This document shows, piece by piece, positions 6,310 through 62,779 of a DNA stretch of 64,000 nt (the stretch's first letter is position 1; each line of letters starts with the position of its first letter). The stretch lies in the IMG/VR virus record IMGVR_UViG_3300044627_003892; one strand, 5' to 3'. A program made the position numbers and the translations under genes. The DNA comes from a virus (taxonomy: Duplodnaviria > Caudoviricetes). Under the pieces are notes generated by a model that saw only the letters and a program-made list of their open reading frames with translations, made no database searches and was not told the origin of the DNA.

Positions 6310-6392
6310 AATTTGTTTGTTTACTATAAATATATCGTTAAATAAAAAACCCCACTTTGTGGGTAGGGTTAATATAATATTAAAAATTATAA

Positions 6393-7215: not shown

Positions 7216-7283
7216 ATTACAATAAATACCTTATAAATAAAAAACCCCTCTTTATAGGAGGGGTTAATCATCTAATAATAAAT

Positions 7284-8707: not shown

Positions 8708-8734
8708 AATAAAAAACCCCTCACATCGGAGGGG
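8708..8734. terminator. intrinsic terminator, identical to 62727-62753
   Basis: aataaaaaacccctcacatcggagggg at both sites. Confidence 0.75.
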
Positions 8735-8759
8735 TTGTATAATTTAATATTGTTTTACA

Positions 8760-13720: not shown

Positions 13721-14476
13721 TTTTTCTTGATTTTGTCAAAATGTCAGTTGAGTGTCAGATGGGGGATAATCCCCTTGACGGGTTTTAGTCATATTAACAA
13801 CTATAAATATAGTGTATATTATGTATATTGTCCATAGGTAAATGTTCCCACTTTTTACCACTGACGTATGTGTAGTGAGGGTTTTTGGTTATATGAAAAG
13901 TGAAAAAAGTGGTCCTCCTGATAGTGTGAGAAGGGTTTTTTTAACTATATACATTTTCCAGATAAAAATAGGATGTAACAATAAAGTGGCGTGGACAGAC
14001 TTTAGTTGTTTAAATCCTTCAACGAAAAGTGTATTTCATTGTGTCTTCAAGGGGGTTTTTAAGATTTCCCCTTACCATATAGACACATGATATCGACAAT
14101 TATAGTGGTGGTAAAAAGTGGGACATATGTTTCATATCACTATAGTCAGGTTAAACCTGACATAACAGATATGTTTCGTATTGTCCCCTTCACATTCCAC
14201 CATATATTTTATACCCTAACAGGTATACTCATATCATCTTATATACCCTTTAGGGTATTTCATTATCCCGATGGGGTACAATACCATTAACAGTAATATG
14301 TTATGTCCCTTCATAGTGTGTGTCTTTCATTATGGGGAATTATTATAGATTAGTGTTGTACGTTAATTATAGATTCATACAATAGGGGAAATTAGGAAGT
14401 AAATAAAGGAATGGACCCATTAGTGTAATGACCCGAAGGGGAATGGAACGACACGATAGTGGAATGGGGGAATGAG

Positions 14477-14508
14477 TTTGTTTAATTCATAATTTCTTAT
14501 TATATTTG
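14477..14508 (+). promoter_or_regulatory. Bacteroidota sigma70-type promoter
   Basis: TTTG (14477-80), 20 nt, then TATATTTG (14501-08), 4 nt before ATG. Confidence 0.75.
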
Positions 14509-14512
14509 TACT

Positions 14513-15307
14513 ATGGTTATTACAGATAGATTAAAACAAATTATTTTTAAACACCTATATAGAGAGTTAGGTGATTGTGAGATTATTCCTTATAATGGGT
14601 CTATATGGTTCATTAATAGGGATAATAAACATTGGTACTTTGAACTTGATGAGTCAGGTACTTTATGGTGGAGATACGATTTTTTTAATTCGTTTTTTCA
14701 AATATTCTCCATGAGTTCGGATGATTTTTGTCCTGTTCTATCTTCTTGGGTGGAAGAGGTCTTAAATCATAAGGTATCCACAACCCAGGATAGCCTGTGT
14801 AACGTATGTAAACTGGTGGAAGAGGTCTTAAATCATAAGGTATCCACAACCTTCATTCCACTTCCAATTACAACGGACAAGGTGGAAGATGTATTAAATC
14901 ATAAGGTATCCACAACGTGCGATGTTAAAGTTCGTGTTCCTTGGAAGGTGGAAGATGTATTAAGTCATAATGTTAAGGTGTCTACAACTACCATTCTCAA
15001 ATACCCCGAGCATTCATTGGTGGAAAAGGTCTTAAATCATAAGGTATCCACAACCGATTCACTTGATTACGTTGGAAGAATTGAGGTAGAAGAGGTATTA
15101 AATCATAGGGTATCTAGAACCTGCCAAACAAGCGTTTATTGTGATAGGACGGTGGAAGAGGTCTTAAATCATAAGGTATCCACAACGCAGAATTTGAATT
15201 ATGTCGGCCAAGGACTGGTGGAAGATGTATTAAATCATAAGGTATCTACAACGGAATCGTATTTTGGACCCTTCACAAGAGGGGTGGAAGAGGTATTAAA
15301 TCAATAA
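14513..15307 (+). CDS. array-bearing protein 1 (conserved N-domain plus VEEVLNHKVSTT-X10 repeats)
   Basis: 264 aa; 22-aa periodic C-terminal half. Confidence 0.85.
   Translation: MVITDRLKQIIFKHLYRELGDCEIIPYNGSIWFINRDNKHWYFELDESGTLWWRYDFFNSFFQIFSMSSDDFCPVLSSWVEEVLNHKVSTTQDSLCNVCKLVEEVLNHKVSTTFIPLPITTDKVEDVLNHKVSTTCDVKVRVPWKVEDVLSHNVKVSTTTILKYPEHSLVEKVLNHKVSTTDSLDYVGRIEVEEVLNHRVSRTCQTSVYCDRTVEEVLNHKVSTTQNLNYVGQGLVEDVLNHKVSTTESYFGPFTRGVEEVLNQ
14749..15303 (+). repeat. CRISPR-like in-frame array: 8 full repeats (36 nt; one 42 nt) plus a partial repeat, 8 spacers of 30 nt
   Basis: Repeat starts counted at 14749, 14815, 14881, 14947, 15019, 15085, 15151, 15217, 15283. Confidence 0.9.
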
Positions 15308-15763
15308 TTAGTTATTCTCTAAAGTACCTGTATAGAAATCTAATACCATATCAAAAATATCATCTAATACATCTTTTGGTAGTTCTTCATAAGACATATA
15401 ACTTTCATCTAAAATTTGTGAGTATTTATATCCACCATAATGAAACACTGTAACATCTTCTTTATTTATCATTTCTATTTGTGAAAGTTCACCGTCTTCA
15501 TCCTTGAGGACTATTGGGTTTTCATTCATATCCATTAGTACAATATATTCATCATCGGTTGTTTCTACTACTTCCTTAATAATCTTAATCTTATTGTTTG
15601 TTGTAAGGAACTCATCACCTAACACATTTATAAGGTATTCTATACCACCGAACATTTCTCCTGTCTTTAGTAACCCCGCCTGACTTGCGATAGTTAATAA
15701 CTTCATCTGTTTTACGGTGTATTCTTCCCTTAATATTCTTTTTATGTTTTGTTGTAGGTTCAT
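15308..15763 (-). CDS. MNLQ leader-family protein
   Basis: MNLQQNIKRILREE. Confidence 0.75.
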   Translation of the reverse strand: MNLQQNIKRILREEYTVKQMKLLTIASQAGLLKTGEMFGGIEYLINVLGDEFLTTNNKIKIIKEVVETTDDEYIVLMDMNENPIVLKDEDGELSQIEMINKEDVTVFHYGGYKYSQILDESYMSYEELPKDVLDDIFDMVLDFYTGTLENN

Positions 15764-15795: not shown

Positions 15796-16125
15796 ATGAA
15801 ATATCTTATAACAGAATCACAATTAGATAAAGTAATCTTTAGATATTTGGATATTAAGAACTTTATTCAGATTAAAAGAGGAAACACAATATACTTTGTT
15901 AATTCGGAAGATGATAAATATGCCCAAATCAGATATGATAGAAACGATGGTTGGTGTTATATACGCCATGGATTAATTTACGAAATTTCTTCTTTCTTTT
16001 CTTTGGACATATATGATTCTAAGGAAGTTATCGGTAGATGGGTTGAAAATACTCTACAAATGAGGGTTACTTATACCCGTTTGGTCTTTCACGATGTGAA
16101 CAATTTGTTTAAAATACCTAACTAA
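15796..16125 (+). CDS. MKYLITES family protein with WVENTL domain
   Basis: Paralog of 19297, 60746, 17961, 21635. Confidence 0.8.
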   Translation: MKYLITESQLDKVIFRYLDIKNFIQIKRGNTIYFVNSEDDKYAQIRYDRNDGWCYIRHGLIYEISSFFSLDIYDSKEVIGRWVENTLQMRVTYTRLVFHDVNNLFKIPN

Positions 16126-16834
16126 TAGTAATAATCTTCCACTCCCCATTATAATCTTCCACAAGACATGTAGAGTTCTCACAGAAGTCCCCTGAGTTCA
16201 TATAGTAATTCTCTATCTTCGGATGATGAATATGTCCACATACTGCCACATCATACCCCTTCTGTTTTGTTAGACCTTTTGCGTTATCCTCAAAATCAGA
16301 TACAAAGTTAATTGCCCCTTTAACAGATTGCTTTATTGTGTTTGCTAATGAATGATATGGTAAGTTAAACCACTTTCTTATTTTGTTATATAAAGTATTA
16401 AACTTAATCACAATATCATATGACCATCCACCGATTACCGCTAACCACCTCGCTTCCATTATAACGAAATCCAATACATCCCCGTGAAAACAAAAATACT
16501 TTCTATTATCTATTCCTGTATGTATATACTTTCTTACAATCCTGATGTTGTTTAATTTAAATGGAATAAAATCTTTTAGGAAGTCATCGTGGTTTCCTCT
16601 TATATAAACCACCTTTGTATTCTTCTCTGACATCTTCATGAACCTTCTGAATATCTTGGTACAATCCTTTGTCCATTTACCATTACCTTTAAGAGCCCAA
16701 CCATCTATTATATCACCGTTCAGTATTAGTTTTTCCGTTGTGTTATTATCCAAGAAACTTATTATCTTATCTGTCTGTGATTGTCTTGCTCCTAAGTGTA
16801 AATCACTCATGATTATCGTTTTCCAATTATTCAT
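16118..16834 (-). CDS. LpxH-like UDP-2,3-diacylglucosamine hydrolase / metallophosphoesterase
   Basis: SDLHLG, GDIID, GNHD, HGD and GHIH motifs. Confidence 0.75.
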   Translation of the reverse strand: MNNWKTIIMSDLHLGARQSQTDKIISFLDNNTTEKLILNGDIIDGWALKGNGKWTKDCTKIFRRFMKMSEKNTKVVYIRGNHDDFLKDFIPFKLNNIRIVRKYIHTGIDNRKYFCFHGDVLDFVIMEARWLAVIGGWSYDIVIKFNTLYNKIRKWFNLPYHSLANTIKQSVKGAINFVSDFEDNAKGLTKQKGYDVAVCGHIHHPKIENYYMNSGDFCENSTCLVEDYNGEWKIITIS

Positions 16835-17538
16835 TCCCAGTATCCTTTATCATCCTCAAAATGATTTTTATTGTTCCTGTTGAAGAATGAACTAACCATA
16901 AGTTTTAACATATACCACACTCCTTTCTGTTTGAACCTTCTTGGACTTGTGAATACCGTTGTATTCATGATATAAAACTTGCTTGGTTTAACTTGTTTGG
17001 AGAATAGATAATCCTCGGCAACTCTTGCGTTTTCATCAAACCCACCGATTGTATCATATACTTCTTTCTTAACCATCATGAACCCACCAAGACAAAATGG
17101 TGTGATTGGTTTGAATACCTTTTGTATTGTGTCAAACAATCTGAATATACTATTATACTCACCTGTCGTTGACCTTACCTTACATGTAATCAAATCTGTA
17201 TTATGTAATAAGAACTCCCATATACAATTGTTTAATATGTTGAAATCCAATAAGAATATGTCAGCGTCCAAAAATAGAACATAAGGTGTTTCCACATTCT
17301 CTGCTCCCTTATTTCTTGCAACAGACGGAAGTCCTCCTGAAATAATCTGTAGATTAAAATAATCTGTTCTCCTATTTTCCAAAGAATAGGATGTATAATC
17401 ATCATCCGATGAATCACAAACAATAACTCTAACATCTTGTATTCCCTTTTGAAAGTTTAATAAGGACAACGTTTGTTCTATTATCTTGCCCTCGTTCTTA
17501 CAAGGGATTACTATGGTTAAAAACTTTGATAAATCCAT
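16831..17538 (-). CDS. glycosyltransferase family 2
   Basis: IVIPCKNE, VCDSSDD, ARNKG, FLDAD, ED motifs. Confidence 0.85.
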   Translation of the reverse strand: MDLSKFLTIVIPCKNEGKIIEQTLSLLNFQKGIQDVRVIVCDSSDDDYTSYSLENRRTDYFNLQIISGGLPSVARNKGAENVETPYVLFLDADIFLLDFNILNNCIWEFLLHNTDLITCKVRSTTGEYNSIFRLFDTIQKVFKPITPFCLGGFMMVKKEVYDTIGGFDENARVAEDYLFSKQVKPSKFYIMNTTVFTSPRRFKQKGVWYMLKLMVSSFFNRNNKNHFEDDKGYWE

Positions 17539-17646
17539 AATAATAACTATTAAAAACAACCTCAAACCATATTATCATATTCTTATTAAATTATTAACCC
17601 AATATGTATTGTTCAATTTTATGTGTATCTTTGTATTTATTATAAT

Positions 17647-17964
17647 ATGAAGATTGAGCATAAGGTTAAAGCAATTGTAAAACTAATTAATACATTATAC
17701 TCTCCTGACGAGATTAAAGTTAGAAAGAGTGAGTTTGATGATGAGATGTTAATTGATGTTTACGTTTCTCATATTGATGACTCATATATAACCAACCCTT
17801 ACCATTATAATCTTAATAAACTAAAGGAATTAAATTTAGAACGTGAGATTAGAAGGGCGATAAAGGATTTTTTGAGTATTAAAACAAGCGGACTTAATCC
17901 ATACACAGGTTTCGCCCCGTATGCTGTTCACGGCATAACAATAGATGTAAGATTAATATTATGA
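17647..17964 (+). CDS. hypothetical protein
   Basis: Start MKIEHK after TATCTTTG/TATTTAT. Confidence 0.65.
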   Translation: MKIEHKVKAIVKLINTLYSPDEIKVRKSEFDDEMLIDVYVSHIDDSYITNPYHYNLNKLKELNLEREIRRAIKDFLSIKTSGLNPYTGFAPYAVHGITIDVRLIL

Positions 17965-18314
17965 AATACCTTATAACAGAATCAAAATTAGAGAAAGTAA
18001 TCTTTAAGTATCTTGATATTCAGGACTTTGTGATATATGACAACAAGAAGAGATTCAGCAATTATATATATTTCTTAAACAGTGAGTCAGATAGGGAATC
18101 ACAGATTAGTGTTTATACTAACAACGCCTTTGGTGAAGTTAGGAATTGGATATTTGTAAATCGTGATTTGACTGATAAATTATCTACCTTATTCCCCATT
18201 GGTAAATCGGATTGTTTGGATATAATCAAAGAATGGGTTAATAATACTTTGGGTATTAGTGATAGTACGATTTGGGATGGTCCATATGATTACAGATTAG
18301 CGGTTACAGATTAA
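17961..18314 (+). CDS. MKYLITES family protein
   Basis: MKYLITESKLEKVIFKYLD ... EWVNNTL. Confidence 0.8.
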   Translation: MKYLITESKLEKVIFKYLDIQDFVIYDNKKRFSNYIYFLNSESDRESQISVYTNNAFGEVRNWIFVNRDLTDKLSTLFPIGKSDCLDIIKEWVNNTLGISDSTIWDGPYDYRLAVTD

Positions 18315-18327
18315 TAGTTAACGAAGA

Positions 18328-18606
18328 ATGAAATACTTAATTACAGAATCACAGTTAGAATCATTTTTACTTAGAAGGTTTACAATGGATGAATTGGAAT
18401 CACTTAGGGATGATTATAACTACATTATGGATGAAGAAGATTTTGAAGATTCCGCCGACAGAGATGATTACGCTTATGAATTAATTGAAAAGTTCATTGA
18501 TAGACATAGAGGTGAAGAGTTTTTTCAATATGATGATGATACTGAATTCTATGATAAACGTTCCAAATATATTGGAGCATTACTCAAATTCTTAAACTCT
18601 AATTAA
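18328..18606 (+). CDS. MKYLITES leader protein, acidic
   Basis: MKYLITESQL. Confidence 0.75.
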   Translation: MKYLITESQLESFLLRRFTMDELESLRDDYNYIMDEEDFEDSADRDDYAYELIEKFIDRHRGEEFFQYDDDTEFYDKRSKYIGALLKFLNSN

Positions 18607-18609
18607 TCT

Positions 18610-18939
18610 TTAGAAACCTTTTCTTTCATTATACATCCGTGTAATTCTTTTTCTATAATGATTTTCTAACCCTTGGTGTATATCATCATACCAAAATTCA
18701 TCTTCAGGTAATGTGCTAACAAATCTCCAATGTACCCCATCCATCATAAAGGTTATTGTTGTGTAGACTAACTCATCTAAAAAATGTGAACTTAAAACCT
18801 TTCTGTCTTTTGTAAGACGATAAGCACCTTCAAAAGATTCAAGAAACTCATTTTCCATTTCATCATTAGAAAGTCTTCTTTTAATTCTCGCTGATAGTTC
18901 TTCCCTCAGTATTCTTTTTATAGATTCTTTTAAGTTCAT
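18610..18939 (-). CDS. MNLxE leader-family protein
   Basis: MNLKESIKRILREE. Confidence 0.75.
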   Translation of the reverse strand: MNLKESIKRILREELSARIKRRLSNDEMENEFLESFEGAYRLTKDRKVLSSHFLDELVYTTITFMMDGVHWRFVSTLPEDEFWYDDIHQGLENHYRKRITRMYNERKGF

Positions 18940-18972
18940 ATTATTATAAATATGATTATATTTATATTCTAT

Positions 18973-19293
18973 ATGAAATATCTTATCACCGAATCACAAT
19001 TAGATAAAGCCAAATCGGTAATAAATAATTTAATGATATCTGAGTTAAATAATATATTAGATTATGATAGAACATCAGATAGTGATTTCATTAATATATA
19101 TAGCCAGGAAAGAGGCCCTGATTTTTTTATTTTAATGGAGTTTGACCATAGTGATGGTAGATTATTTATTGATGAATCTTTTTTAGATAAGTTTTCATCC
19201 ATGTATCCACTTGATAAAGAACAATCAGGTAAATTCATTTCTGATTGGTTTAGTAAAGTATTTGATGTTGATGTTATGTTTTTTGAATATTAA
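18973..19293 (+). CDS. MKYLITES family protein
   Basis: Start reassigned to MKYLITESQLDK. Confidence 0.75.
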   Translation: MKYLITESQLDKAKSVINNLMISELNNILDYDRTSDSDFINIYSQERGPDFFILMEFDHSDGRLFIDESFLDKFSSMYPLDKEQSGKFISDWFSKVFDVDVMFFEY

Positions 19294-19296
19294 TAT

Positions 19297-19626
19297 ATGA
19301 AATACCTTATCACCGAATCACAATTAGACAGAGTAATCTTTAGATATTTGGATATTAAGAACTTTATTCAGATTAAAAAGGGTGCAACTATATTTTTAGT
19401 TAATTTAGAAGATGATGAATACGCTGAGATTAGATATGATAAAATTAGTGGATGGTGTTACATTGTTAATAGTTTAATTAATGAAGTGGCCTCTTTCTTT
19501 TCTTTGGGTATCTCCGATTCCATGGAACTTATCCGTAGATGGGTTGAAAATACCCTCAAAGTAATAGTTGTACAAGTCCGTGGGGCTAAACCCGCACCGA
19601 ATGTATGGATAAGAGTAAATAACTAA
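19297..19626 (+). CDS. MKYLITES family protein with WVENTL domain
   Basis: Shares an identical ~47-nt stretch with the 15796 gene. Confidence 0.8.
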   Translation: MKYLITESQLDRVIFRYLDIKNFIQIKKGATIFLVNLEDDEYAEIRYDKISGWCYIVNSLINEVASFFSLGISDSMELIRRWVENTLKVIVVQVRGAKPAPNVWIRVNN

Positions 19627-19634
19627 TATAATAT

Positions 19635-20045
19635 ATGAAATACATAATCACTGAGAATCAATATAGCAAAACTCTTAAACCCTTATTAGAGAAATTTGGT
19701 ATGCGTACTCTGTGTAAAATGACTGATAAGGAACCTGAAGATATTATTGATGAGATTGGTCTTAAAGGAACAAGAGAAGATATTATCTTTCTAACAAAAA
19801 CTATACTTGAAAATGATATCTCAACCGTCTTGATGTATTGTAGTTATAATATCATACCCACTCGTGACTCTATGAACTTGGTCGTCTACATACCTAAGCC
19901 AGCTCCTGCAAATGTGGGAAGGTATATCTATGAGGAAGGTACAAGAAGTATGTATAGAGATGTTATTTCTAAGGCTTTATATCAATTGGGTGGTGGTCTA
20001 ATTAGAGTTCACAATATTGAGGTTTATAATACAGGAAATTGTTAA
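19635..20045 (+). CDS. MKYxITE leader protein
   Basis: MKYIITENQ. Confidence 0.75.
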   Translation: MKYIITENQYSKTLKPLLEKFGMRTLCKMTDKEPEDIIDEIGLKGTREDIIFLTKTILENDISTVLMYCSYNIIPTRDSMNLVVYIPKPAPANVGRYIYEEGTRSMYRDVISKALYQLGGGLIRVHNIEVYNTGNC

Positions 20046-20061
20046 CTTATATTTATATATA

Positions 20062-20418
20062 ATGAAATATCTTATCACCGAATCAAAATTAAAAACATTC
20101 ATTAAAAACAAGTTTAATATTGACCTGACAGGTCGTGTGGAATTTGAACCTGATTCATATGAATTATTGGTTTATTTTGATAACTATCTTACTCAAGATA
20201 GTTTAGCAAGAAGACGGAGAATGGATAACTATGGTCCGATATATTTTATAGAATTAGATAATGGAAATAAAATATTTTATCAAATGAATTATAGTTCAGA
20301 CAGTCCTTTAATTCTTAGTAACGAAGGTGCTCAATATACTGAATCACAATTTATGAATTTACTTGGTATCTCAGGTCTTGGAATATCAATTGAACAATTT
20401 CTTGATTTATACGTATAA
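20062..20418 (+). CDS. MKYLITES leader protein
   Basis: Start reassigned to MKYLITESKL. Confidence 0.75.
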   Translation: MKYLITESKLKTFIKNKFNIDLTGRVEFEPDSYELLVYFDNYLTQDSLARRRRMDNYGPIYFIELDNGNKIFYQMNYSSDSPLILSNEGAQYTESQFMNLLGISGLGISIEQFLDLYV

Positions 20419-20433
20419 GATACTTAATCACTA

Positions 20434-21234
20434 TTAGATTAACGTACCAACATATCCTAATGCATCCCAATGACTCTTTCCTTTTGGTGTCTTAGTTGCA
20501 CCCGCTACCACATCTAATCCTCTTGCTTTCGATGGACCTGTAATAACATGTGATGATGGAACTCCTTTACCTACCGCAGACTGAACTGAACTTGATGTAT
20601 TCTTAGATATAGCGTAAGGTTCTACTATGAATAACTTACTTTTGTTTTTAATAAGAGAAGCAACTTTAGATGAGTATGAACATCCTGCACTGAATAATAC
20701 AACTGTCGCGTTAGGATTTTGTATGATTGCGGTTTCAATCTTATCAAATTGATTATATCTATATCCTATAACATTTTTCTTTGAACTATTACTTTTAAGT
20801 AAGTTTATTTGTTCACCTATGTTTAAGTCTCCCTTTCTATAATCTAATCCACCCATTAATATAACATCAACAATTGGAGCTTTAGAATCTTTTTTATCAT
20901 CAGACTCCGTTGATTCGTATATGACATCAACACATTCTTTATTATAAAACCTTTCTAAGTCATCCCTCATGTAGTTTTCTACATACGTAACACCATCTTT
21001 ATATTTTAACCACTCAGACAACGGACCATCGGTATCAGAACCATCTGTAATCATGTCCATAATTTCATGTTGTATACCACGCATGAATGCTTCAAAGTTT
21101 TCAAAATCACATGGATAATTAGTTACATTGTTATCCCATACAAACGATTTAAATCTATTCAATCTTCTTTTGAACTTTGGTGAAAAATCTGTTTCTTCCC
21201 TTAATACTTTTTTTATATTCTCTTGTAGGTTCAT
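20434..21234 (-). CDS. MNLQE leader protein with possible alpha/beta-hydrolase-like C-terminal domain
   Basis: VILMGGL, VVLFSAG (elbow-like), IVEP, HW motifs. Confidence 0.4.
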   Translation of the reverse strand: MNLQENIKKVLREETDFSPKFKRRLNRFKSFVWDNNVTNYPCDFENFEAFMRGIQHEIMDMITDGSDTDGPLSEWLKYKDGVTYVENYMRDDLERFYNKECVDVIYESTESDDKKDSKAPIVDVILMGGLDYRKGDLNIGEQINLLKSNSSKKNVIGYRYNQFDKIETAIIQNPNATVVLFSAGCSYSSKVASLIKNKSKLFIVEPYAISKNTSSSVQSAVGKGVPSSHVITGPSKARGLDVVAGATKTPKGKSHWDALGYVGTLI

Positions 21235-21266
21235 AATATTATAAATATAATTATATTTATTATTAC

Positions 21267-21638
21267 ATGAAGTATATTATTACCGAGTCACAACATAAAT
21301 TAATATCCGAACTTGAAAGAACTTGGAGAGATTCTGAATATACGGAACAATACAATAGACTAAAACCTAAAATGATTCGTTATTTTGAAAATTTGGTTGA
21401 TTCACATTCTGAAAATGATGTAAGACTTAACTTATTTGATAGTGACCAAAACGCCGTAATGGTTTATAATAAACCAAGTGGTGATTTATACTATAATAGG
21501 AACTTTGACGATATATATGGTACAGCCTTTCCTCATCCCATTTGGTTAGTTCACGGCAAATTCATTATGTCAGATGTATTTAATGAGTTCTTTCCTGACT
21601 ACGAAGTTAAATCAGTTAGAAGTATAACATTATCATGA
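21267..21638 (+). CDS. MKYxITES family protein
   Basis: MKYIITESQ. Confidence 0.75.
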   Translation: MKYIITESQHKLISELERTWRDSEYTEQYNRLKPKMIRYFENLVDSHSENDVRLNLFDSDQNAVMVYNKPSGDLYYNRNFDDIYGTAFPHPIWLVHGKFIMSDVFNEFFPDYEVKSVRSITLS

Positions 21639-21973
21639 AATATTTAATCACAGAATCACAATTAGATAAAGCAATACTCAAGTTTCTTGATAGTCAGGAT
21701 TTTAATATAACTAAAATTGGTGCCAGTACATATATTTCATACCCTGAAGATGATTTTGCTCAGATTAAATATGGTGGTAATCATTCCAATAATGAATTGT
21801 GTTTTATCTATAAAGGTTTAATTGAAGCAATTTCTTCCTTCTTTTCTCTTAACAGTTATCAATCCACCAGAATTGTTGGGCAATGGGTTAAGAAAAAACT
21901 GAATTTGGAGGGTCAAATGTCCAACAAGATAATGAGCTCCCAATGGTCGTTAAAATTACCAACTGAAGATTAA
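21635..21973 (+). CDS. MKYLITES family protein
   Basis: SSFFSL...GQWVKKKL. Confidence 0.8.
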   Translation: MKYLITESQLDKAILKFLDSQDFNITKIGASTYISYPEDDFAQIKYGGNHSNNELCFIYKGLIEAISSFFSLNSYQSTRIVGQWVKKKLNLEGQMSNKIMSSQWSLKLPTED

Positions 21974-22004
21974 TTTGTATTTTCAAAGTTTTTTTGTATC
22001 TTTG
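21974..22004 (+). promoter_or_regulatory. Bacteroidota sigma70-type promoter
   Basis: TTTG (21974-77), 19 nt, then TATCTTTG (21997-22004). Confidence 0.75.
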
Positions 22005-22009
22005 TGCTT

Positions 22010-22648
22010 ATGGTTACAGATAAGCTAAAACAACTCATATTCAAACACCTATACAAAGAGTTAGGTAATGTGGAGATAATCCCGTATAAAGACTCTGTAT
22101 GGTTCATTGATAGGGAAAATTGTTATTGGTATTTTCAGTTGTCTAAAGATGGATGTTTATTTTGGAGATACTCATTCTTCCCATCGTTTTTCAGTATTTT
22201 CTCTTTGGAGCAAAGTGAGTTTGAACCAATAATATCTTCTTGGGTGGAAGAGGTATTAAATCATAAGGTATCCACGACAGGTAATAAGCTCGGTTACTTC
22301 TCGCGAAAGGTGGAAGAGGTATTAAATCATAAGGTATCCACAACAAAAATGTTTGTAATTGACGAATTTCCTCTGGTGGAAGAGGTATTAAATCATAAGG
22401 TATCCACAACTGAAGAGAAAACTACTGTAACAGCAAAGTGGGTGGAAGAGGTCTTAAATCATAAGGTATCCGAAACTTTTGAAGTAGACGCCGCCCAAAA
22501 AAGAAAGGTAAAAAAAGTATTAGATAGTAGGGTATCAACAACTAAAAATAATTCCTTATTTTCCGAAAGGTCAGTGGAAGAAGTATTAAATAGTGCTTGG
22601 GTGAAAAAGGCATTAAACAATAAAAAAGAAAATGAAAGTAACGGATAG
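22010..22648 (+). CDS. array-bearing protein 2
   Basis: ATG at 22010 (MVTDKLKQ); paralog of 14513. Confidence 0.85.
   Translation: MVTDKLKQLIFKHLYKELGNVEIIPYKDSVWFIDRENCYWYFQLSKDGCLFWRYSFFPSFFSIFSLEQSEFEPIISSWVEEVLNHKVSTTGNKLGYFSRKVEEVLNHKVSTTKMFVIDEFPLVEEVLNHKVSTTEEKTTVTAKWVEEVLNHKVSETFEVDAAQKRKVKKVLDSRVSTTKNNSLFSERSVEEVLNSAWVKKALNNKKENESNG
22243..22592 (+). repeat. CRISPR-like in-frame array: 5 repeats plus a degenerate sixth, 5 spacers of 30 nt
   Basis: Repeat starts 22243, 22309, 22375, 22441, 22507, 22573. Confidence 0.88.
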
Positions 22649-23243
22649 ATTAAGACAACTCATATTCAAACAACTATACAAAGAATTAGGTAATGTGGAA
22701 ATTATCCCTACCCAATACAGTTATTGGTTTATTAATAGAGAAGAAAAATACTGGTATTTCCAACTAACTGAAAGTGGATGTTTATATTGGAGATATGATT
22801 ATTTCAAATCTTTCTTTTCTTTTTTCTCTTTGGAGTCCAAAGATTTTGAACCAATTATTTCATCTTGGGTGGAAGAGGTATTGAATAGTAAAGTATCCAC
22901 AACAATTGTGCAGATGCATCATAAGAAGGATTCGGTGGAAGAGGTATTGAATAGTAAGGTATCCACAACTCAGCAATTCAGTTTCACTTCGAATGATATG
23001 ATGGAAGAGGTATTGAATAGTAAGGTATCCACAACTGCAGGAAAGGCAGGAACTGTAACCATTGCGGTGGAACAGGTATTGAATCGTAAGGTATCCAAAA
23101 CAGTCCGTGACGTAGGTGAAGGAAACTTTTTGGTGGAAGATATATTGAATCGTAAGGTATCCAAAACGGAAGAATTCATCTCAAGAAGAGCGGAATCGGT
23201 ATATGAGGCATTAAACAACAAAAAAGAAAATGAAAGTAACTGA
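22632..23243 (+). CDS. array-bearing protein 3 (VEEVLNSKVSTT variant)
   Basis: Overlaps the upstream gene; paralogous N-domain. Confidence 0.85.
   Translation: MKVTDRLRQLIFKQLYKELGNVEIIPTQYSYWFINREEKYWYFQLTESGCLYWRYDYFKSFFSFFSLESKDFEPIISSWVEEVLNSKVSTTIVQMHHKKDSVEEVLNSKVSTTQQFSFTSNDMMEEVLNSKVSTTAGKAGTVTIAVEQVLNRKVSKTVRDVGEGNFLVEDILNRKVSKTEEFISRRAESVYEALNNKKENESN
22868..23216 (+). repeat. CRISPR-like in-frame array: 5 repeats plus partial, 5 spacers of 30 nt
   Basis: Repeat starts 22868, 22934, 23000, 23066, 23132, 23198; repeat variant GGTGGAAGAGGTATTGAATAGTAAGGTATCCACAAC. Confidence 0.88.
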
Positions 23244-23964
23244 TAGATTAAAACAGGTTGTATTCAAACAACTATACAAAGAATTAGGTAATGTGGAGAT
23301 AATCCCATATAAAGATTCTATATGGTTAATTGACCGAGAAAAGGAGCATTGGTATTTTGAATTTGAAAAGAGTGGTCGTTTGTGGTGGAGATATTATTTC
23401 TTTAATAGTTTTTTTACTATTTTCTCATTGGAACCCAAAGATTTTGAACCAATACTCTCTTCTTGGGTGGAAGAGGTATTAAATCATAAGGTGCCCACAA
23501 CTGAATTGTGTGCGGAGAAAAAGTATGATGAGGTGGAAGAGGTATTAAATCATAAGGTATCTACAACTGTTTACATGGGCATGAAGGCAAGTGTGAAGAT
23601 GGAAGAGGTATTAAATCATAAGGTATCCACAACGCAAAACGATATCGGTAAAGAAGGTTTCTTGGTGGAAGATGTATTAAATCATAAGGTATCTACAACA
23701 CAAACGACGAATGCGGAACAAGTGGTTTTGGTGGAAAAGGCATTAAATCATAAGGTGTCTACAATATCATTCAATACACCGCCGTTTCCGAATATGGTGG
23801 AGAAGGTATTAAATCATAAGGTGTCTAAAACCTATTGTAGACCCACTATTGTTCCCAGTGAGGTGAAAGAAGTCCTAAATCATAAGGTAACTACAACACA
23901 CACATCACGTACATGTAATTCACCAGTGGTGGAAGAGGTATTAAATGAAAACCCCACTGAGTAG
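23230..23964 (+). CDS. array-bearing protein 4
   Basis: 244 aa; paralogous N-domain. Confidence 0.85.
   Translation: MKVTDRLKQVVFKQLYKELGNVEIIPYKDSIWLIDREKEHWYFEFEKSGRLWWRYYFFNSFFTIFSLEPKDFEPILSSWVEEVLNHKVPTTELCAEKKYDEVEEVLNHKVSTTVYMGMKASVKMEEVLNHKVSTTQNDIGKEGFLVEDVLNHKVSTTQTTNAEQVVLVEKALNHKVSTISFNTPPFPNMVEKVLNHKVSKTYCRPTIVPSEVKEVLNHKVTTTHTSRTCNSPVVEEVLNENPTE
23466..23946 (+). repeat. CRISPR-like in-frame array: 7 repeats plus partial, 7 spacers of 30 nt
   Basis: Repeat starts 23466, 23532, 23598, 23664, 23730, 23796, 23862, 23928. Confidence 0.9.
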
Positions 23965-24017: not shown

Positions 24018-24638
24018 TTAAGTATTTTTATCTCTAAGTCTTTCATCTGTTTCTTCTTGGACTTCAGGTATGAATCTATCCAAGATTATTTCATACACTT
24101 CTGGTAAGTAAAACGTATTATACCAATCAAATAAATTATCAACACTATTAAAAAAATAATTACCATTATGTGTATTATGTGTAAGTTCCACAAAATAATC
24201 ACCATCACCACTTGTATCGTATATTCCTACATTAGGTTTCTTTGAGTCATCTTCTAATCCATACCAATCAAGTTCAACGGGTGTATAATCAGCAGTTGCA
24301 AAAAAAGGTGTTGCCATTACCCATATTTTTTCTAATACATTAGGTGGATAGTGTCCCGATTTAAACTGCCTTGTCCAATAAAACACATCATCACTACTTA
24401 TTTCAATTTCAAATCCTTTATATTTTGCAGGTAAATTACCATTTTCAATATTTTCAACCAATAGTTCTTTAGCAACAAATTCATCAATTTTTAAATCAGA
24501 CATTTTGTATAAATAGGTAAGACTCACACCCATCATTTTTGCCGTCTTATAAACACCATGTTTACCAACAGTATCCATAATGAATTTACTCTTTTTATCT
24601 TCCCTTAATACTCTTCTTATGTGTTCCTGTAGATTCAT
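24018..24638 (-). CDS. MNLQE leader-family protein
   Basis: MNLQEHIRRVLRED. Confidence 0.75.
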   Translation of the reverse strand: MNLQEHIRRVLREDKKSKFIMDTVGKHGVYKTAKMMGVSLTYLYKMSDLKIDEFVAKELLVENIENGNLPAKYKGFEIEISSDDVFYWTRQFKSGHYPPNVLEKIWVMATPFFATADYTPVELDWYGLEDDSKKPNVGIYDTSGDGDYFVELTHNTHNGNYFFNSVDNLFDWYNTFYLPEVYEIILDRFIPEVQEETDERLRDKNT

Positions 24639-24639
24639 A

Positions 24640-25068
24640 TTAATTACTTTTACCTGTTCCTTTATTGATTAATTTTATACAGTTAGATGATATATTCTCA
24701 AATGTCACAATATGATGTTCATAATCTCCACCTTCGAAATGTGCATCTCTATACCAAGTAACCCCAGCACATTCTGTATCTATTAACCATGTGTCATCAT
24801 CATAACCATCACTAAACATATCTTCTTTATCCAATGAATCTGTGGCAAAAATTGCTGGTTGACATTCCGTATACCATTCACCATATAAATCCATTGCGTG
24901 ATTCTCATAACATTCCCCTACCGATGTCAACAACCCATTAAGTCGTATATTCTTTCTCCATACCGAATTTGATTTATGGACCACAAACTTATTAGGTGTA
25001 TATTCATCTCCTGATGGAGAATATAGTTCTTCCCTTAATATTCGTCTTATTGTTTCTTGTAGGTTCAT
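24640..25068 (-). CDS. MNLQE leader protein, possible ADP-ribosyltransferase-fold domain
   Basis: VVHKS...IRLNGL...AIFAT...DTWLID resembles the ART H-x-S/T, I..GL, aromatic pattern. Confidence 0.4.
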   Translation of the reverse strand: MNLQETIRRILREELYSPSGDEYTPNKFVVHKSNSVWRKNIRLNGLLTSVGECYENHAMDLYGEWYTECQPAIFATDSLDKEDMFSDGYDDDTWLIDTECAGVTWYRDAHFEGGDYEHHIVTFENISSNCIKLINKGTGKSN

Positions 25069-25532
25069 TTCTTTGTATTTTTAACACAGTTAGGGTATCT
25101 CTTACCAAACATAGTTTTCATTCCTTTTTGAGTATATCCTTTCCAACATCTTTCAGTTAATTCACCTTCTTTCATCTCCTGAGTTTTCTTTTTAGATTGT
25201 TCTTTTTTGGATTCAATATATTCAAAGGCAGTTCTTAATCTTTTCTTAACCTCAGGGTCTTTCGCTCTTTCCAAAGCCACTCGTAATCTTTGATGAATTA
25301 GATTTATAATCTGAGACTGACGAGCGTGTGATTTAGATTTGAAACTTTCTTTGTTTAAAGTATCTACAATATCTTGTTTTGTTCTGAACTTAACCGATAC
25401 AGTATCCTTTGGGTTTTCATCAGTATATAATCTTCTGTCGGAATCTTTTGGTTTCTTACCTGTTCCAACTTTGGGGTCTGACTCAACCAAGTATTTCCTC
25501 AATAATCTTCTTATTTGTTCTTGTAGGTTCAT
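25065..25532 (-). CDS. MNLQE leader protein, basic, with C-terminal CWKGY...PNCVK motif
   Basis: CWKGY-type motif recalled from T4-like phage proteins. Confidence 0.65.
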   Translation of the reverse strand: MNLQEQIRRLLRKYLVESDPKVGTGKKPKDSDRRLYTDENPKDTVSVKFRTKQDIVDTLNKESFKSKSHARQSQIINLIHQRLRVALERAKDPEVKKRLRTAFEYIESKKEQSKKKTQEMKEGELTERCWKGYTQKGMKTMFGKRYPNCVKNTKK

Positions 25533-25533
25533 A

Positions 25534-26169
25534 TTATCTATTATCTAATCTATTAACCTCATTATTACGAAGTTTATTCAAATACATCCATTCTAAAGAC
25601 CCAGGCTCTCTTTCTTCTAACGCCAATAAATCTTTTTTACGCCATAGTGTATTGTTCATAATAACCTTAATCATCTCGTCTTGAGTAACTCCTTCAGGTA
25701 CTTCTTTAATTGGTGGAACACACGTATATGACCTATCATTAAATGATAATTCTTCAACAGATATATCATTTCTACCCATCATATTTGAGATTTTACTTAA
25801 AAAAGTATCTTCAAACCATTCTTCAATTATATAATAAAGATAATTTCTTCTAACAGGAAAAGCCCCTAATAGTCCACCAACAAAATCTTCTTGTACTGAT
25901 AATGTTGAAGATTCAAATTGTCTTTTAGACGTTGGGGTTTTATCGTTAGTTTCTTCAAAGAACAATGCAAGATTCATTATTTGTTTTCCATTCTTACAAA
26001 ACTCAAAATCGTGTCTTGTTTTATAACTTTCAACGTGGTATATTTCAGCACCTGAAGCCATACTATTCAATCTATCCAAAATAAATTTCTCGGATTTTTC
26101 ACTCGGTTTCAAATACTTCTTGTTAACCTCTTCTCTTAATACTCTTTTTATGTGTTCCTGTAAGTTCAT
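25534..26169 (-). CDS. MNLQE leader-family protein
   Basis: MNLQEHIKRVLREE. Confidence 0.75.
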   Translation of the reverse strand: MNLQEHIKRVLREEVNKKYLKPSEKSEKFILDRLNSMASGAEIYHVESYKTRHDFEFCKNGKQIMNLALFFEETNDKTPTSKRQFESSTLSVQEDFVGGLLGAFPVRRNYLYYIIEEWFEDTFLSKISNMMGRNDISVEELSFNDRSYTCVPPIKEVPEGVTQDEMIKVIMNNTLWRKKDLLALEEREPGSLEWMYLNKLRNNEVNRLDNR

Positions 26170-26178
26170 AATATATAA

Positions 26179-26487
26179 TTAGTCGTAATGTAAATAAATA
26201 TAAAATTTGAATGGGAAAAACCTTGTAATGATTGAACCAATTTCTTTAATTGTTTCTTGTTTTACTTTATTAAAACCTTTGGGATTATCTATCGCATATT
26301 GTCTATCATAAAATATATTAACTTGAAATCCATTCATCATTTCGTCATAATCAAACTCAACACGTTTAACTGCCTTAAATTTTAGTTTGCTGAATAATGT
26401 ATTAGCAGTTTTTACAAAATGCTCCACCTTATCAAACTTTTCAGTCTCCTCTTTTAATACTTTTTTTATGTGTTCTTGTAGGTTCAT
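26179..26487 (-). CDS. MNLQE leader-family protein
   Basis: MNLQEHIKKVLKEE. Confidence 0.75.
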   Translation of the reverse strand: MNLQEHIKKVLKEETEKFDKVEHFVKTANTLFSKLKFKAVKRVEFDYDEMMNGFQVNIFYDRQYAIDNPKGFNKVKQETIKEIGSIITRFFPFKFYIYLHYD

Positions 26488-27452: not shown

Positions 27453-27539
27453 ATGAAAAAGAGCGACAAAATAGAATCCGTAATCTTTACACTTGTTGCC
27501 TTGGTTGCAGTTGTATCAATGATTTTTATAGGATGTTAA
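27453..27539 (+). CDS. 28-aa membrane peptide (not in ORF track)
   Basis: MKKSDKIESVIFTLVALVAVVSMIFIGC; TACATTTG promoter at 27440-27447. Confidence 0.55.
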   Translation: MKKSDKIESVIFTLVALVAVVSMIFIGC

Positions 27540-27850
27540 TAAAAGAACAAATAAAGAAATTTATTGAATCCCAAAATGTTGAAATATTAAATGATGGTAG
27601 TTACTATTTTTTAAAAGTTTCATCTTTGGAATTACCTATTTGTGTGATAAACTCAACCAAATACGCATATGGTAATAAAGAATTCATTAAAACAATTTCA
27701 ACCTTACACTCTGTCCCAAAGGCATTGGTAATTGAAGTGTTTAATGAATGGGTACAATCACAATTTAATAACGAATTGAAGAGTGTTATATTTTTAGGTT
27801 CACCAATTTATAAGTTCATCGCTAATTTAGAAATACCATTCCCCAATTGA
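27533..27850 (+). CDS. hypothetical protein
   Basis: 105 aa. Confidence 0.65.
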   Translation: MLIKEQIKKFIESQNVEILNDGSYYFLKVSSLELPICVINSTKYAYGNKEFIKTISTLHSVPKALVIEVFNEWVQSQFNNELKSVIFLGSPIYKFIANLEIPFPN

Positions 27851-47661: not shown

Positions 47662-47713
47662 AATATTATCTCTTTATTTATTTCAAAGAACTCTTGTAAC
47701 TGATACAAATGTA

Positions 47714-47745
47714 AAACAAAAACCCCACCTTTTCAAGTGGGGTTT
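47714..47745. terminator. intrinsic terminator; 32-bp direct repeat of 48487-48518
   Basis: aaacaaaaaccccaccttttcaagtggggttt at both sites. Confidence 0.8.
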
Positions 47746-48452: not shown

Positions 48453-48486
48453 AATTTTTTGGTTTTTTATTTATAAATATCCCGTT

Positions 48487-48518
48487 AAACAAAAACCCCA
48501 CCTTTTCAAGTGGGGTTT
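48487..48518. terminator. intrinsic terminator; second copy of the 32-bp repeat
   Basis: Identical to 47714-47745. Confidence 0.8.
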
Positions 48519-50903: not shown

Positions 50904-52232
50904 TTATTTTATTTTTATTTTCATTTTGGTTCCACCTTCAATTTTTTCACAACTCAATTTAAAACCATGTTCTTCTAATATCGCAACACATATATTCAAC
51001 CCAAGACCCTTCTCTTCACCAGTGACATCAGCCTTCTTTGAATACTTTGTTAAATGTTTTTCAAGTTGTTTTTGTGAGAATCCTTTACCATTGTCCTCAA
51101 CTATTAAATATTCTTCTTCGTTATATATCTTAACTTTTTTAACTTCACTATCGTTATATGATAAACCATTCTTAATTAAGTTCTCAACCGCATTACAGAA
51201 TAAAGTCTCATTCACTTCCATATCACCCAAGTCAGATATCTCAACCTGTGAACTATATGAATTTGGTGAAATGTATTTCCAAATCAAATCTTTAGCGTTA
51301 ACCACAGATTTATTTAACACAACATTTTGTTTAACAAGATTGGTAAACTCATAAACACTCTTATAAACTTTTTGAGTGTGGTTTAATCCTTCTTTAACCA
51401 TCTTAAGTGCTCCTTCAATCTTCAATCTTTGGATGTCCTCAACGGTTAATCTTTTTTCTAATGATGTAATACCTCTTGGCATGTATGTATTAATACCTGA
51501 GTGCATGTCATGTCTGATGATTCTTGCTGCGTGTTCCAAGTAACTATTCTTCTTAGCAATATCACTAATCTGTTGTTCAATCTCAACATCCTGTACTTGT
51601 ATTCTCTTTCTTTGTAAGACAACCGCCAATATTAAAACAAACAGTATAACAACACCTAAAGCACCATAAAGGTATTTCTTCAAGGTCTCTCTTTGTTTTT
51701 CCAAATCAGTTTTTTCAGTCATCAAATTTCCATTCTCATCCATTAAGTCATCAGTCTCCAAAGTCAAACCGATGATATTCTTTTCTTTACTTAACGAAGT
51801 AATGGTATTTTCTTTTGATTTTATAAGTTCTTCATTTCTTATAGCTTGAGCTAATAATAAATCTCGTTCTGCGGTAAGTTTATTAATCTTGTTATCAATT
51901 TGAACTAATACATTTTTTAAATCTTCTTTAGGTAAATCAGTATACGATTTTGGTAAGTCAGTTAAAAACTGTAAGTCTTCAGCAATACTTGCTAAATCAC
52001 TTTCAGACAATTTAGTTTCATCAACTGGTTCAGGTTCAGGTGGAATCCAAGTTGTAACGATTTCTTGTATATCCATAGCCGCAACTTGACTAGTATCACC
52101 ATCAATCTGTAAATTATCGTTAGACCATGAAACGTCAATTCCGTCAACTAATGTATCGTTGTAATTCAAATTTTGTGAGTGTAAACCTGTCGATACGAGT
52201 GTTACTAAAATCAATAATATTATCTTTTTCAT
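50904..52232 (-). CDS. membrane sensor histidine kinase
   Basis: Signal peptide, TM helix, H-box RHDMHS, N-box ENLIKNG, DNGKG, GLGLNIC. Confidence 0.85.
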   Translation of the reverse strand: MKKIILLILVTLVSTGLHSQNLNYNDTLVDGIDVSWSNDNLQIDGDTSQVAAMDIQEIVTTWIPPEPEPVDETKLSESDLASIAEDLQFLTDLPKSYTDLPKEDLKNVLVQIDNKINKLTAERDLLLAQAIRNEELIKSKENTITSLSKEKNIIGLTLETDDLMDENGNLMTEKTDLEKQRETLKKYLYGALGVVILFVLILAVVLQRKRIQVQDVEIEQQISDIAKKNSYLEHAARIIRHDMHSGINTYMPRGITSLEKRLTVEDIQRLKIEGALKMVKEGLNHTQKVYKSVYEFTNLVKQNVVLNKSVVNAKDLIWKYISPNSYSSQVEISDLGDMEVNETLFCNAVENLIKNGLSYNDSEVKKVKIYNEEEYLIVEDNGKGFSQKQLEKHLTKYSKKADVTGEEKGLGLNICVAILEEHGFKLSCEKIEGGTKMKIKIK

Positions 52233-52849
52233 TACTTTTTTAATTCTTCTTTTAATAAACTTTTATTTTTCCAAATCCATGATTCATATCTTCGAGTTAT
52301 ACCATTAAAATCAAGAAACTTTAAATTGTGAAAATAATTTGTTGCTGGTGCGAACTGCATATCAAACTCTTCTCTGAATTTTTTATATTCTTCATACTCA
52401 CTTTTAGTCATTTTTTCAAAAACAAGAATTTTTCCGTATTCATGAGTGTAAAGATTGTAATCATCTAAATTCACAAAATATAACTTGTTGTATGGGGGTA
52501 TAGTGTATATGAACGCTCCATTTGTAGCGTATTCCCAAAGAGTCATGTTCAATTCATCAGCCCATTTATATGTCGTATCTGCTACATATTTGATACTATC
52601 TAACATGTTAGGTATATTTTCAACAATGTTATTTAAACTATCTATCTTATTATTTAAGGATGTGATTTTTTTACCTTGTTCTCTAATAATCCTTCTTTGT
52701 GTTTCAATTGCTTTATTAATATCAACAGATTGTTTAACAGATAGGATAACAACAGAGTCACCTCTATAGATTGTTTGAATTGGGTATTTAATTTGACTAA
52801 ACCCAAACAAAGAAATTGTTAAGAAAATAAAAGTTAGTAATGTTTTCAT
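52232..52849 (-). CDS. secreted/coiled-coil hypothetical protein
   Basis: Signal-peptide-like N-terminus. Confidence 0.65.
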   Translation of the reverse strand: MKTLLTFIFLTISLFGFSQIKYPIQTIYRGDSVVILSVKQSVDINKAIETQRRIIREQGKKITSLNNKIDSLNNIVENIPNMLDSIKYVADTTYKWADELNMTLWEYATNGAFIYTIPPYNKLYFVNLDDYNLYTHEYGKILVFEKMTKSEYEEYKKFREEFDMQFAPATNYFHNLKFLDFNGITRRYESWIWKNKSLLKEELKK

Positions 52850-62728: not shown

Positions 62729-62753
62729 TAAAAAACCCCTCACATCGGAGGGG
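62727..62753. terminator. bidirectional intrinsic terminator
   Basis: Identical to 8708-8734; lies between convergent genes. Confidence 0.75.
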
Positions 62754-62779
62754 CTTTAAGAAACCTTGTTGATATTTTT

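Follow-up and report, generated by a model that had tools for sequence, protein, structure and literature searches.

In a 64,000-nucleotide (nt) stretch of AT-rich phage DNA from IMG/VR virus record IMGVR_UViG_3300044627_003892 (Caudoviricetes; 32% guanine plus cytosine (GC); hereafter the window), a gene of 264 amino acids (aa) at 14513–15307 on the plus strand carries the DNA-level hallmarks of a CRISPR array. Its open reading frame (ORF) encodes a 79-aa N-terminal part, the N-domain, and then runs through periodic 66-nt units, each made of a conserved 36-nt block (the repeat) and a unique 30-nt block (the spacer). This structure, array 1, is likely to be a CRISPR-type integration target that has been domesticated inside the phage gene, where it makes up the 3′ two thirds, and that is kept translatable and probably loaded in trans. 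CRISPR arrays are regarded as non-coding; here, their hallmarks lie within a phage gene that is selected to stay translatable. Cas-less arrays of huge phages with host-matching spacers, mini-arrays and repeat mimics are known already; the new element is an array kept as coding sequence, and a search of the literature on translated or coding CRISPR arrays found no description of one.

Array 1 comprises eight spacers of exactly 30 nt, no two of which resemble each other, and nine repeats, the ninth of them cut short at the stop codon. The earlier note on this DNA, made from the sequence alone, had counted eight spacers, and the repeat register at 14749–15307 bears this out. The frame-keeping 6-nt insertion that it placed in repeat 4 (14947–14988) is likewise present: the insertion is AATGTT, encodes Asn-Val and lengthens the repeat to 42 nt. 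An identical 42-nt repeat occurs in the orthologues L001–L006, and the insertion is therefore old and tolerated. The synonymous or conservative repeat variants noted earlier (GTA/GTC, TCC/TCT, GAG/GAT) are real. Three paralogous genes of the same build follow at 22004–23964, giving four arrays in the window altogether, and the N-domain coding part of the array 1 gene is 71–77% identical to theirs at the nucleotide level. Twenty-four repeat copies with nine or fewer mismatches are present in the window, all on the plus strand, compared with about 0.1 matches in shuffled sequence even at 13 mismatches, which excludes a chance origin of the repeats. Minus-strand ORFs at 14685–14849 and 22191–22409, which share the peptide WIPYDLRPLPP, are the reverse complement of repeats and represent artefacts.

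The unit of array 1 is defined at the level of DNA and lies one base off the codon register. This is apparent in a set of 129 repeats within seven mismatches of one 36-nt consensus, drawn from 25 arrays of 14 sources (the window phage and 13 related loci, L001–L013) that together provide 111 repeat-spacer-repeat units and 66 spacer families. The repeat block starts one base before a Val codon, so that its first position coincides with the third base of the codon that ends the spacer; this base is G in 127 of the 129 repeats, although 13 different codons (TGG, AAG, TTG, GAG, ATG and others) end on it. At its other side the block stops after base two of the final Thr codon, and base three of that codon varies freely. 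Among the four-fold degenerate positions of the repeat, 4, 28 and 34 are almost invariant and 13, 16 and 31 are variable. Codon changes between repeats divide into 71 synonymous and 72 non-synonymous, as against 22:77 for random changes; therefore, a DNA-level process and protein-level selection both shape the repeat. Near-identical direct repeats and unique spacers of constant length, the generic features of a CRISPR array, are thus both in evidence, and the 66 spacer families are mutually unrelated. A search of all Rfam families at a permissive threshold returned no CRISPR repeat family and nothing credible, and the exact repeat-spacer-repeat pattern found no bacterial array with the phage repeat in 185,579 species genomes.

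The source of the spacers lies in the chromosome of freshwater Flavobacteriales: they are fragments of ordinary genes, captured from both strands and without regard to frame. A scan of the same 185,579 genomes with the 24-nt core of spacer s01 found matches in two Lake Mendota Flavobacteriales metagenome-assembled genomes (MAGs), where 29 of the 30 nt lie antisense in rplM (Pfam Ribosomal_L13), next to rpsI, rpsB, tsf and queA; a minus-strand ORF over s01 reads VYIRYTGYPG, the L13 peptide of the host source gene. In a BLAST search with the array, s02 matched 30/30 in genome G516 (locus L057) and 28–29/30 in six other genomes of the family, four of them at 29/30, on the sense strand of a Zn-dependent phospholipase C-like gene and in a different reading frame; a 28/30 match to s02 is found in G461, a genome of this family with type II-C CRISPR. 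Spacer s04 matches the sense strand of a GH92 glycoside hydrolase gene in MAG G407 at 26/30. Counting all arrays, just five MAGs contain protospacers, at four or fewer mismatches, of 12 spacer families; our own arithmetic gives a chance expectation of about 0.004, and the spacers of the paralogous arrays match the same MAGs as those of array 1. The genes hit are scattered and ordinary (L13, SecA, UppS, GH92, a sodium:alanine symporter, a dehydrogenase, transporters), eight protospacers are in sense and four in antisense orientation, and reading frames are not preserved.

Base composition agrees with this origin. The earlier note had found the spacers richer in GC than their AT-rich flanks and had suspected a foreign source, and both suppositions hold: the mean is 0.42 against about 32% for the phage, and for three of the eight spacers a protospacer lies in a gene of a bacterial chromosome. 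The GC of array 1 spacers ranges from 0.37 to 0.47 with a mean of 42.1% (42.2% for all 66 families), and a check set beforehand excluded phage composition, stop-free phage 30-mers averaging 32.9% (p = 0.001); host-MAG 30-mers, at 43.3%, do not differ from the spacers (p = 0.6). The MAG loci themselves have a GC of 42.3%, as opposed to 31.8% for the phage. As a negative control, 6.2 kb of adjoining phage DNA (the region of small paralogues at 15796–21973) gave no match in the five MAGs. Spacers had no match in phage DNA outside the arrays and only noise in a blastn search of 50,697 phage records. In 401 Flavobacteriaceae genomes there was no full-length spacer match, the sole partial one being 25/27 to s01; the core of s06 was not found in genome contigs, and that of s07 occurred in metagenome contigs only within other phage arrays.

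The closest relatives of the window phage, which carries T4-like genes such as those for RNA ligase and a thymidylate synthase family protein, are IMG/VR contigs of 208–241 kb from lake metagenomes, and orthologues of the array gene are present in seven related contigs (Table 1). The array maps of the window phage and L001–L007 are collinear, and their differences are gains or losses of whole units. Spacers private to one lineage (s01 in the window phage, s09 in L001, s15 in L007) stand at the 5′ end, beside the N-domain part, and repeat mismatches increase toward the 3′ end, so that collinearity, 5′ novelty and 3′ decay, the signs of polarised growth in CRISPR arrays, are all observed here. 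The best host matches belong to s01 and s02, the two newest spacers, as fits this polarity. Array 1 itself recurs with zero differences in contigs of two lake-water DNA runs from 2018 and 2023, and a dozen or so more runs contain 95% of the words sampled from it. The analysis also covered contigs of two lake-water runs labelled as RNA, which make up small shares of each run: a 151-nt contig of library run X19, which falls on 14881–15282, reads through the end of s15, a repeat, s03, a repeat and s08, and so has the form of an L007-type array.

Table 1. Order of spacers in the array gene of the window phage and its relatives, 5′ to 3′; [42] marks the 42-nt repeat.
Source	Spacer map
Window phage (W)	s01 s02 s03 [42] s04 s05 s06 s07 s08
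L001	s09 s10 s03 [42] s04 s05 s08 s11
L002	s02 s10 s03 s12 [42] s04 s05 s08 s11
L004	s02 s13 s10 s03 s12 [42] s04 s08 s11
L006	s10 s03 s14 s12 [42] s04 s07
L007	s15 s03 s08

The array is kept translatable, and only stop-free inserts of 30 nt are seen. Spacer length is 30 nt in 111 of 111 units, whereas 9 of 22 spacers in the type VI-B arrays of Flavobacterium columnare/covae measure 29 or 31 nt. No in-frame stop codon occurs in any of the 66 spacer families in the frame of the ORF, as against 17–41 of 66 in each of the five other frames; among random 30-mers of the host, about 32% have a stop in any one frame, so that a filter of this kind is strong yet affordable. Each of the 25 arrays is contained entirely in an ORF, and none extends past its stop. 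These ORFs open with an N-domain relative of 81–98 aa, except in the two most distant loci, where the upstream open frame has 134 aa (L012) or 24 aa before it is cut by the end of the contig (L013). The earlier note had taken the frame-keeping insertion and the repeat variants as direct evidence of translation; translation stands, on the strength of this insertion, spacer length, absence of stops, containment in the ORF and the excess of synonymous changes, but the evidence is strong indirect rather than direct, and array 1 is probably translated as protein.

The N-terminal 92 residues of the predicted protein are modelled by AlphaFold with a predicted local distance difference test (pLDDT) score of 81–91 as a helix, four strands, a helix and a long helix that continues into repeat 1. 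The array-encoded tail (residues 93–264) is predicted to be disordered, with a pLDDT of 30–50, which gives no support to the solenoid fold suggested earlier for the 22-aa repeat. No known fold or family was recognised in PDB, BFVD, ESM Atlas, Pfam or PHROGs: the best PDB hit of the model (Z = 6.6 over 57 residues) reflects a common helical arrangement, BFVD returned uncharacterised homologues only, ESM Atlas gave no usable match, and the protein belongs to no Pfam or PHROGs family. A tblastn search of the 50,697 phage records found no match either, and homologues are present only in uncultured phage or metagenome data. Variants of spacers shared between arrays comprise six synonymous and seven non-synonymous changes, where 23:77 is expected (p = 0.09); therefore, the decapeptides encoded by spacers are at most weakly constrained.

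Comparison with characterised systems places the phage array close to, yet apart from, type VI-B. The VI-B repeat is 36 nt long with GUUG/CAAC ends and a U-rich loop, and its 30-nt spacers lie 5′ of the repeat in the CRISPR RNA (crRNA) (Smargon et al., 10.1101/092577). We compared the genuine VI-B arrays of Bergeyella zoohelcum, Capnocytophaga and F. columnare/covae. Those of B. zoohelcum ATCC 43767 and F. columnare/covae share with the phage the 36-nt repeat and 30-nt spacers, and 22–23 of the 36 positions of the phage repeat are the same in the repeats of B. zoohelcum and F. columnare, concentrated at both termini. In VI-B arrays as in the phage, the repeats are oriented in the direction of transcription, new spacers enter at the 5′ side and a degenerate repeat closes the 3′ side, and neither the F. 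columnare VI-B array nor the phage array adjoins adaptation genes. The hairpin closed by GUUG...CAAC and the U-rich loop are, in contrast, absent from the phage repeat, the ends of which are GGUG...CAAC; its fold has a predicted energy of -5.4 kcal/mol, no better than shuffles (z = -1.3), compared with -10.9 for F. columnare and -11.2 for B. zoohelcum, and the distant variant L012 has no repeat stem at all. The phage array further differs from VI-B in its position inside a stop-free ORF, in spacers that come from the host chromosome rather than from phages, and in lacking a protospacer adjacent motif (PAM). The host family, that of the matching Flavobacteriales MAGs, is represented by 236 genomes, many of them MAGs and incomplete; Cas13b (NF038190) was found in none of these and in none of three kin phage records, and the positive controls B. 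zoohelcum and F. columnare were recovered.

Arrays without cas genes, with a median of six repeats, are known from huge phages, and some hold spacers that target the chromosome of the host (Al-Shayeb et al. 2020, PMC7162821). The array described here resembles them in its jumbo phage setting, its compactness, the lack of Cas1, Cas2 and Cas4, spacers that match bacteria of the same habitat and repeats related to those of the host. The huge-phage arrays are described as non-coding guides; in the present phage, a protein gene has the array as its body, is selected for an open frame and exists in four paralogues per genome. RNA anti-CRISPRs, mini-arrays and solitary repeat units in viruses (PMC10651486; reviewed in PMC11656645) are also phage-borne repeats without cas genes. 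Their repeats are identical to those of the host, act as RNA and accompany spacers that target related viruses, whereas the phage array has host DNA for spacers and resembles host repeats at the repeat termini alone.

These precedents lend themselves to an explanation in which the array acts as RNA: a host Cas effector (Cas13b, or Cas9 on the opposite strand) would make guides against host genes from it, or the array would serve as an effector decoy, with translation being incidental or stabilising the transcript. The 36 + 30 geometry, termini and polarity are those of VI-B, the repeats are oriented in the direction of transcription, s01 is antisense to the highly expressed rplM, huge-phage arrays with host-targeting spacers (PMC7162821) and repeat-mimicking RNA anti-CRISPRs (PMC10651486) are on record, and a lack of phage-derived spacers would fit selection against self-targeting. 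We do not think, however, that the array is a set of guide RNAs, and consider an RNA role unlikely: the repeat is devoid of a VI-B hairpin or U-rich loop and its stem is not conserved in L012, Cas13b was not found in the 236 host-family genomes, the strand ratio of 8:4 shows no bias, and there is no PAM. An RNA role would moreover leave the open frame unexplained, that is, the absence of in-frame stops from all 66 families, the exact 30-nt lengths and the frame-keeping insertion.

The domesticated integration target that we favour would be served by a CRISPR system of the host family. Cas1 is encoded in 16 of the 236 genomes, and the two loci checked have the order cas9-cas1-cas2-array. Spacers in the type II-C arrays of the family are 30 nt long, and the repeats either 36 or 47 nt. 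In those of L080, L081, L084, L087 and L088, as in the phage, spacers measure 30 nt, some repeats measure 36 nt, the repeat starts with GGTG or GTTG and ends with (T)CACAAC in cas orientation, and the leader lies on the same side; the II-C repeat of G461 starts with GGTG and ends with TTCACAAC. The repeat interior is unrelated, and the II-C arrays are non-coding and stand beside cas genes. By our own count the phage repeat is identical to the 36-nt II-C repeat of L084 at 17 of 36 positions, mostly at the 3′ end. Conservation of the whole repeat, including the part that pairs with trans-activating CRISPR RNA, is not seen, nor is an adjacent cas9; no cas9 was found in the phage DNA.

In the proposed mechanism, integration would be carried out in trans by Cas1–Cas2 of a host type II-C system, by analogy with F. 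columnare, where type II-C Cas1 supplies spacers in trans to a VI-B array that has no Cas1 of its own (Hoikkala et al., PMC8092290). Each insertion would duplicate the junction repeat and thereby add a module of 22 residues (12 conserved and 10 arbitrary) to a flexible C-terminal tail. The phage repeat would have kept the termini of host-family repeats (GGTG...CACAAC) and not the crRNA hairpin; with both ends, the parts that an integrase meets, retained, the interior would be free to encode VEEVLNHKVS. Selection would then remove about one-third of raw insertions, those bearing stops, as well as any of 29 or 31 nt. With low confidence, we suggest that the selected product is the protein, a small folded domain with a multivalent tail of the conserved 12-mer, in which the host decapeptides would be near-neutral linkers. 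That CRISPR-type spacer integration has been put to use, or domesticated, to write new peptide modules into phage proteins, with survivors chosen by protein-level selection, we put forward tentatively.

Several observations weigh against domestication with loading in trans. A source was identified for three of the eight spacers of array 1 and for none of the other five. Adaptation genes are missing from the phage side: Cas1 (PF01867) was not found in three kin phage records (G001, G004 and G005, from genomes 71–82% complete), and tblastn with Cas1, Cas2, Cas9 and Cas13b gave no match in the window or in L001–L013, so that array 1 departs from a standard CRISPR locus both in the absence of these genes and in lying wholly inside a conserved ORF. 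On the host side, the five MAGs with the best protospacers, which are incomplete, likewise yielded no Cas1, Cas2, Cas9 or Cas13b. Most II-C repeats of the host family are 47 nt long, a poor fit to a ruler mechanism acting on a 36-nt repeat, and those of 36 nt match the phage repeat at the 3′ end only. Neither flank of the 12 protospacers carries a PAM, the F. columnare motifs NNNNNTAAA and TTTANNNNN included, whereas about 50–63% of acquisitions in F. columnare have one (PMC8092290). Translation is deduced from sequence patterns, and the X19 contig, which hints that such arrays are transcribed, may be carry-over of DNA. Finally, the tail is predicted to be disordered, and the peptides encoded by the spacers evolve almost neutrally, with no protein-level function evident.

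Alternatively, the arrays might be decoy integration sites: many copies of the phage genome, each bearing several leader-repeat mimics, would draw the prespacers of host Cas1–Cas2 away from the host array, the spacers being a by-product and the ORF being kept only since the decoy sits in a needed gene. Only the repeat termini, which are relevant to the integrase, resemble host repeats, the window holds four arrays, and the spacers look unselected, with both strands represented, no PAM and near-neutral peptides. If the N-domain alone were needed, stops in spacers would be harmless, yet there are none in 66 families; a decoy should also collect phage-derived spacers, of which none are seen, and adaptation genes were not found in the best-matching MAGs. 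We regard a decoy as improbable and rank it below an RNA role. CRISPR finders often mis-call coding repeats, and an ordinary tandem-repeat protein, grown by unit duplication with diversifying selection on a loop, its CRISPR likeness and bacterial matches coincidental, would account for a coding ORF with a conserved 12-residue motif and for distant small paralogues in which a W-V/F-x-x-x-L helix occupies the corresponding place but lacks the nucleotide sequence of the repeat; we judge this already refuted by the protospacer matches, since 12 spacer families reproduce, at 26–30/30, parts of bacterial genes that are scattered and are read on both strands and in other frames, and it is further contradicted by a spacer GC equal to that of the host, by 66 mutually unlike spacer families and by repeats that are near-identical at synonymous sites and at the base outside the codon frame. 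A diversity-generating retroelement or other templated hypervariation was also rejected, as the phage DNA contains no second spacer copy outside the arrays and the variable parts come from bacterial genes.

If host Cas1–Cas2 inserts the spacers, phage DNA is a substrate of the host adaptation machinery, and the phage protein grows longer as a result. Such a process would bear on the loading of Cas1-less arrays, on what confines integrase specificity to repeat termini and on the exploitation or diversion of adaptation by phages; if integration does write peptides, it would constitute a new class of mechanism for diversifying proteins and a novel use of Cas1–Cas2. Through the protospacers, at the level of genes, an uncultured jumbo phage is linked directly to one specific family of freshwater Flavobacteriales. 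Insertion and selection could be watched in nature, since a long time series from the lake contains the array in abundance.

Table 2. Features of the array gene and its surroundings in the window.
Feature	Position	Strand	Remark
Non-coding region upstream of array gene	13721–14476	+	Short ORFs only; conserved in orthologues
Promoter-like box, Bacteroidota type	14477–14508	+	TTTG-N20-TATATTTG; consensus match only
Protein-coding gene, 264 aa	14513–15307	+	N-domain and array-encoded tail
N-domain coding part	14513–14748	+	Occupies place expected for CRISPR leader
Repeat 1, 36 nt	14749–14784	+	Encodes end of last helix of N-domain
Spacer s01	14785–14814	+	Private to window phage; newest position; rplM match
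Repeat 2	14815–14850	+	
Spacer s02	14851–14880	+	Match in Zn-dependent phospholipase C-like gene
Repeat 3	14881–14916	+	
Spacer s03	14917–14946	+	Common to L001–L007; no source found
Repeat 4, 42 nt	14947–14988	+	AATGTT (Asn-Val) insertion
Spacer s04	14989–15018	+	GH92 gene match
Repeats 5–8 with s05–s07	15019–15252	+	Repeats start at 15019, 15085, 15151, 15217
Spacer s05	15055–15084	+	
Spacer s06	15121–15150	+	
Spacer s07	15187–15216	+	
Spacer s08	15253–15282	+	Oldest; diverged form in L001–L007
Truncated terminal repeat	15283–15307	+	Runs into stop codon (15305–15307)
Three paralogous array-bearing genes	22243–23964	+	Arrays from 22243, 22868, 23466

Upstream of the array gene, about 790 bp (13721–14512) are free of long ORFs, rich in GGGGA/GGGGAA motifs and contain small hairpins. 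This region is about 90% identical in L001, L002, L006 and L007, the length of its indels is not divisible by three, and the last 120 nt or so before the gene are kept even in L004, where the remainder is replaced; the stretch may be a regulatory or RNA element. The earlier note had assigned the gene its own host-type promoter beside a long non-coding region, and the box at 14477–14508, which ends 4 nt before the ATG, fits this assignment as a consensus match only. Its -7 box is conserved in orthologues, boxes of this type number 14 in the window where 4.4 are expected, and a second one, at 21974–22004, precedes the cluster of three arrays.

A T-rich tract at 14676–14703, 45–72 nt before repeat 1, has counterparts at the equivalent place in the three paralogues and encodes the invariant Phe-rich motif RY-FF-SFF-IF. 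A similar tract lies at about the same distance in genuine II-C and VI-B leaders (L019, L080, L081 and L087), such leader tracts having been noted by Hoikkala et al. (PMC8092290), and the comparison between the phage and these leaders revealed nothing else in common. The likeness is suggestive only and perhaps a coincidence in AT-rich DNA.

At least eight small paralogues, at 15796–21973 on the plus strand and at 27533–27850, start with MKYLITESQL, share the layout of the N-domain and end in a W-V/F-x-x-x-L helix. In the paralogue at 15796–16125 the sequence that encodes this helix is another 36-nt block, which starts with GTTG; 30 nt with a GC of 40% and half a copy of the block come after it, and the gene resembles an array with a single unit. 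On the minus strand (15308–15763, 18610–18939, 20434–21234 and 24018–26487) lies a second multigene family, with eight genes or more; its members start with MNLQE-I-[KR]-[KR]-[IVL]-L-[RK]-E, and their first 57 nt or so are conserved in DNA (repeat family D6). Near-identical terminator-like hairpins (AAAAACCCC...GGGGTTT) of the repeat families D14 and D17 stand behind many genes, at 6337–6371, 7232–7266, 47711–47745, 48484–48518, 8708–8739, 62727–62758 and other sites. Two paralogous genes of about 430 aa on the minus strand (50904–52232 and 52846–54117) match PHROG 857 and 10912 (kinase-like) and have a 278-nt DNA repeat, D11, in common.

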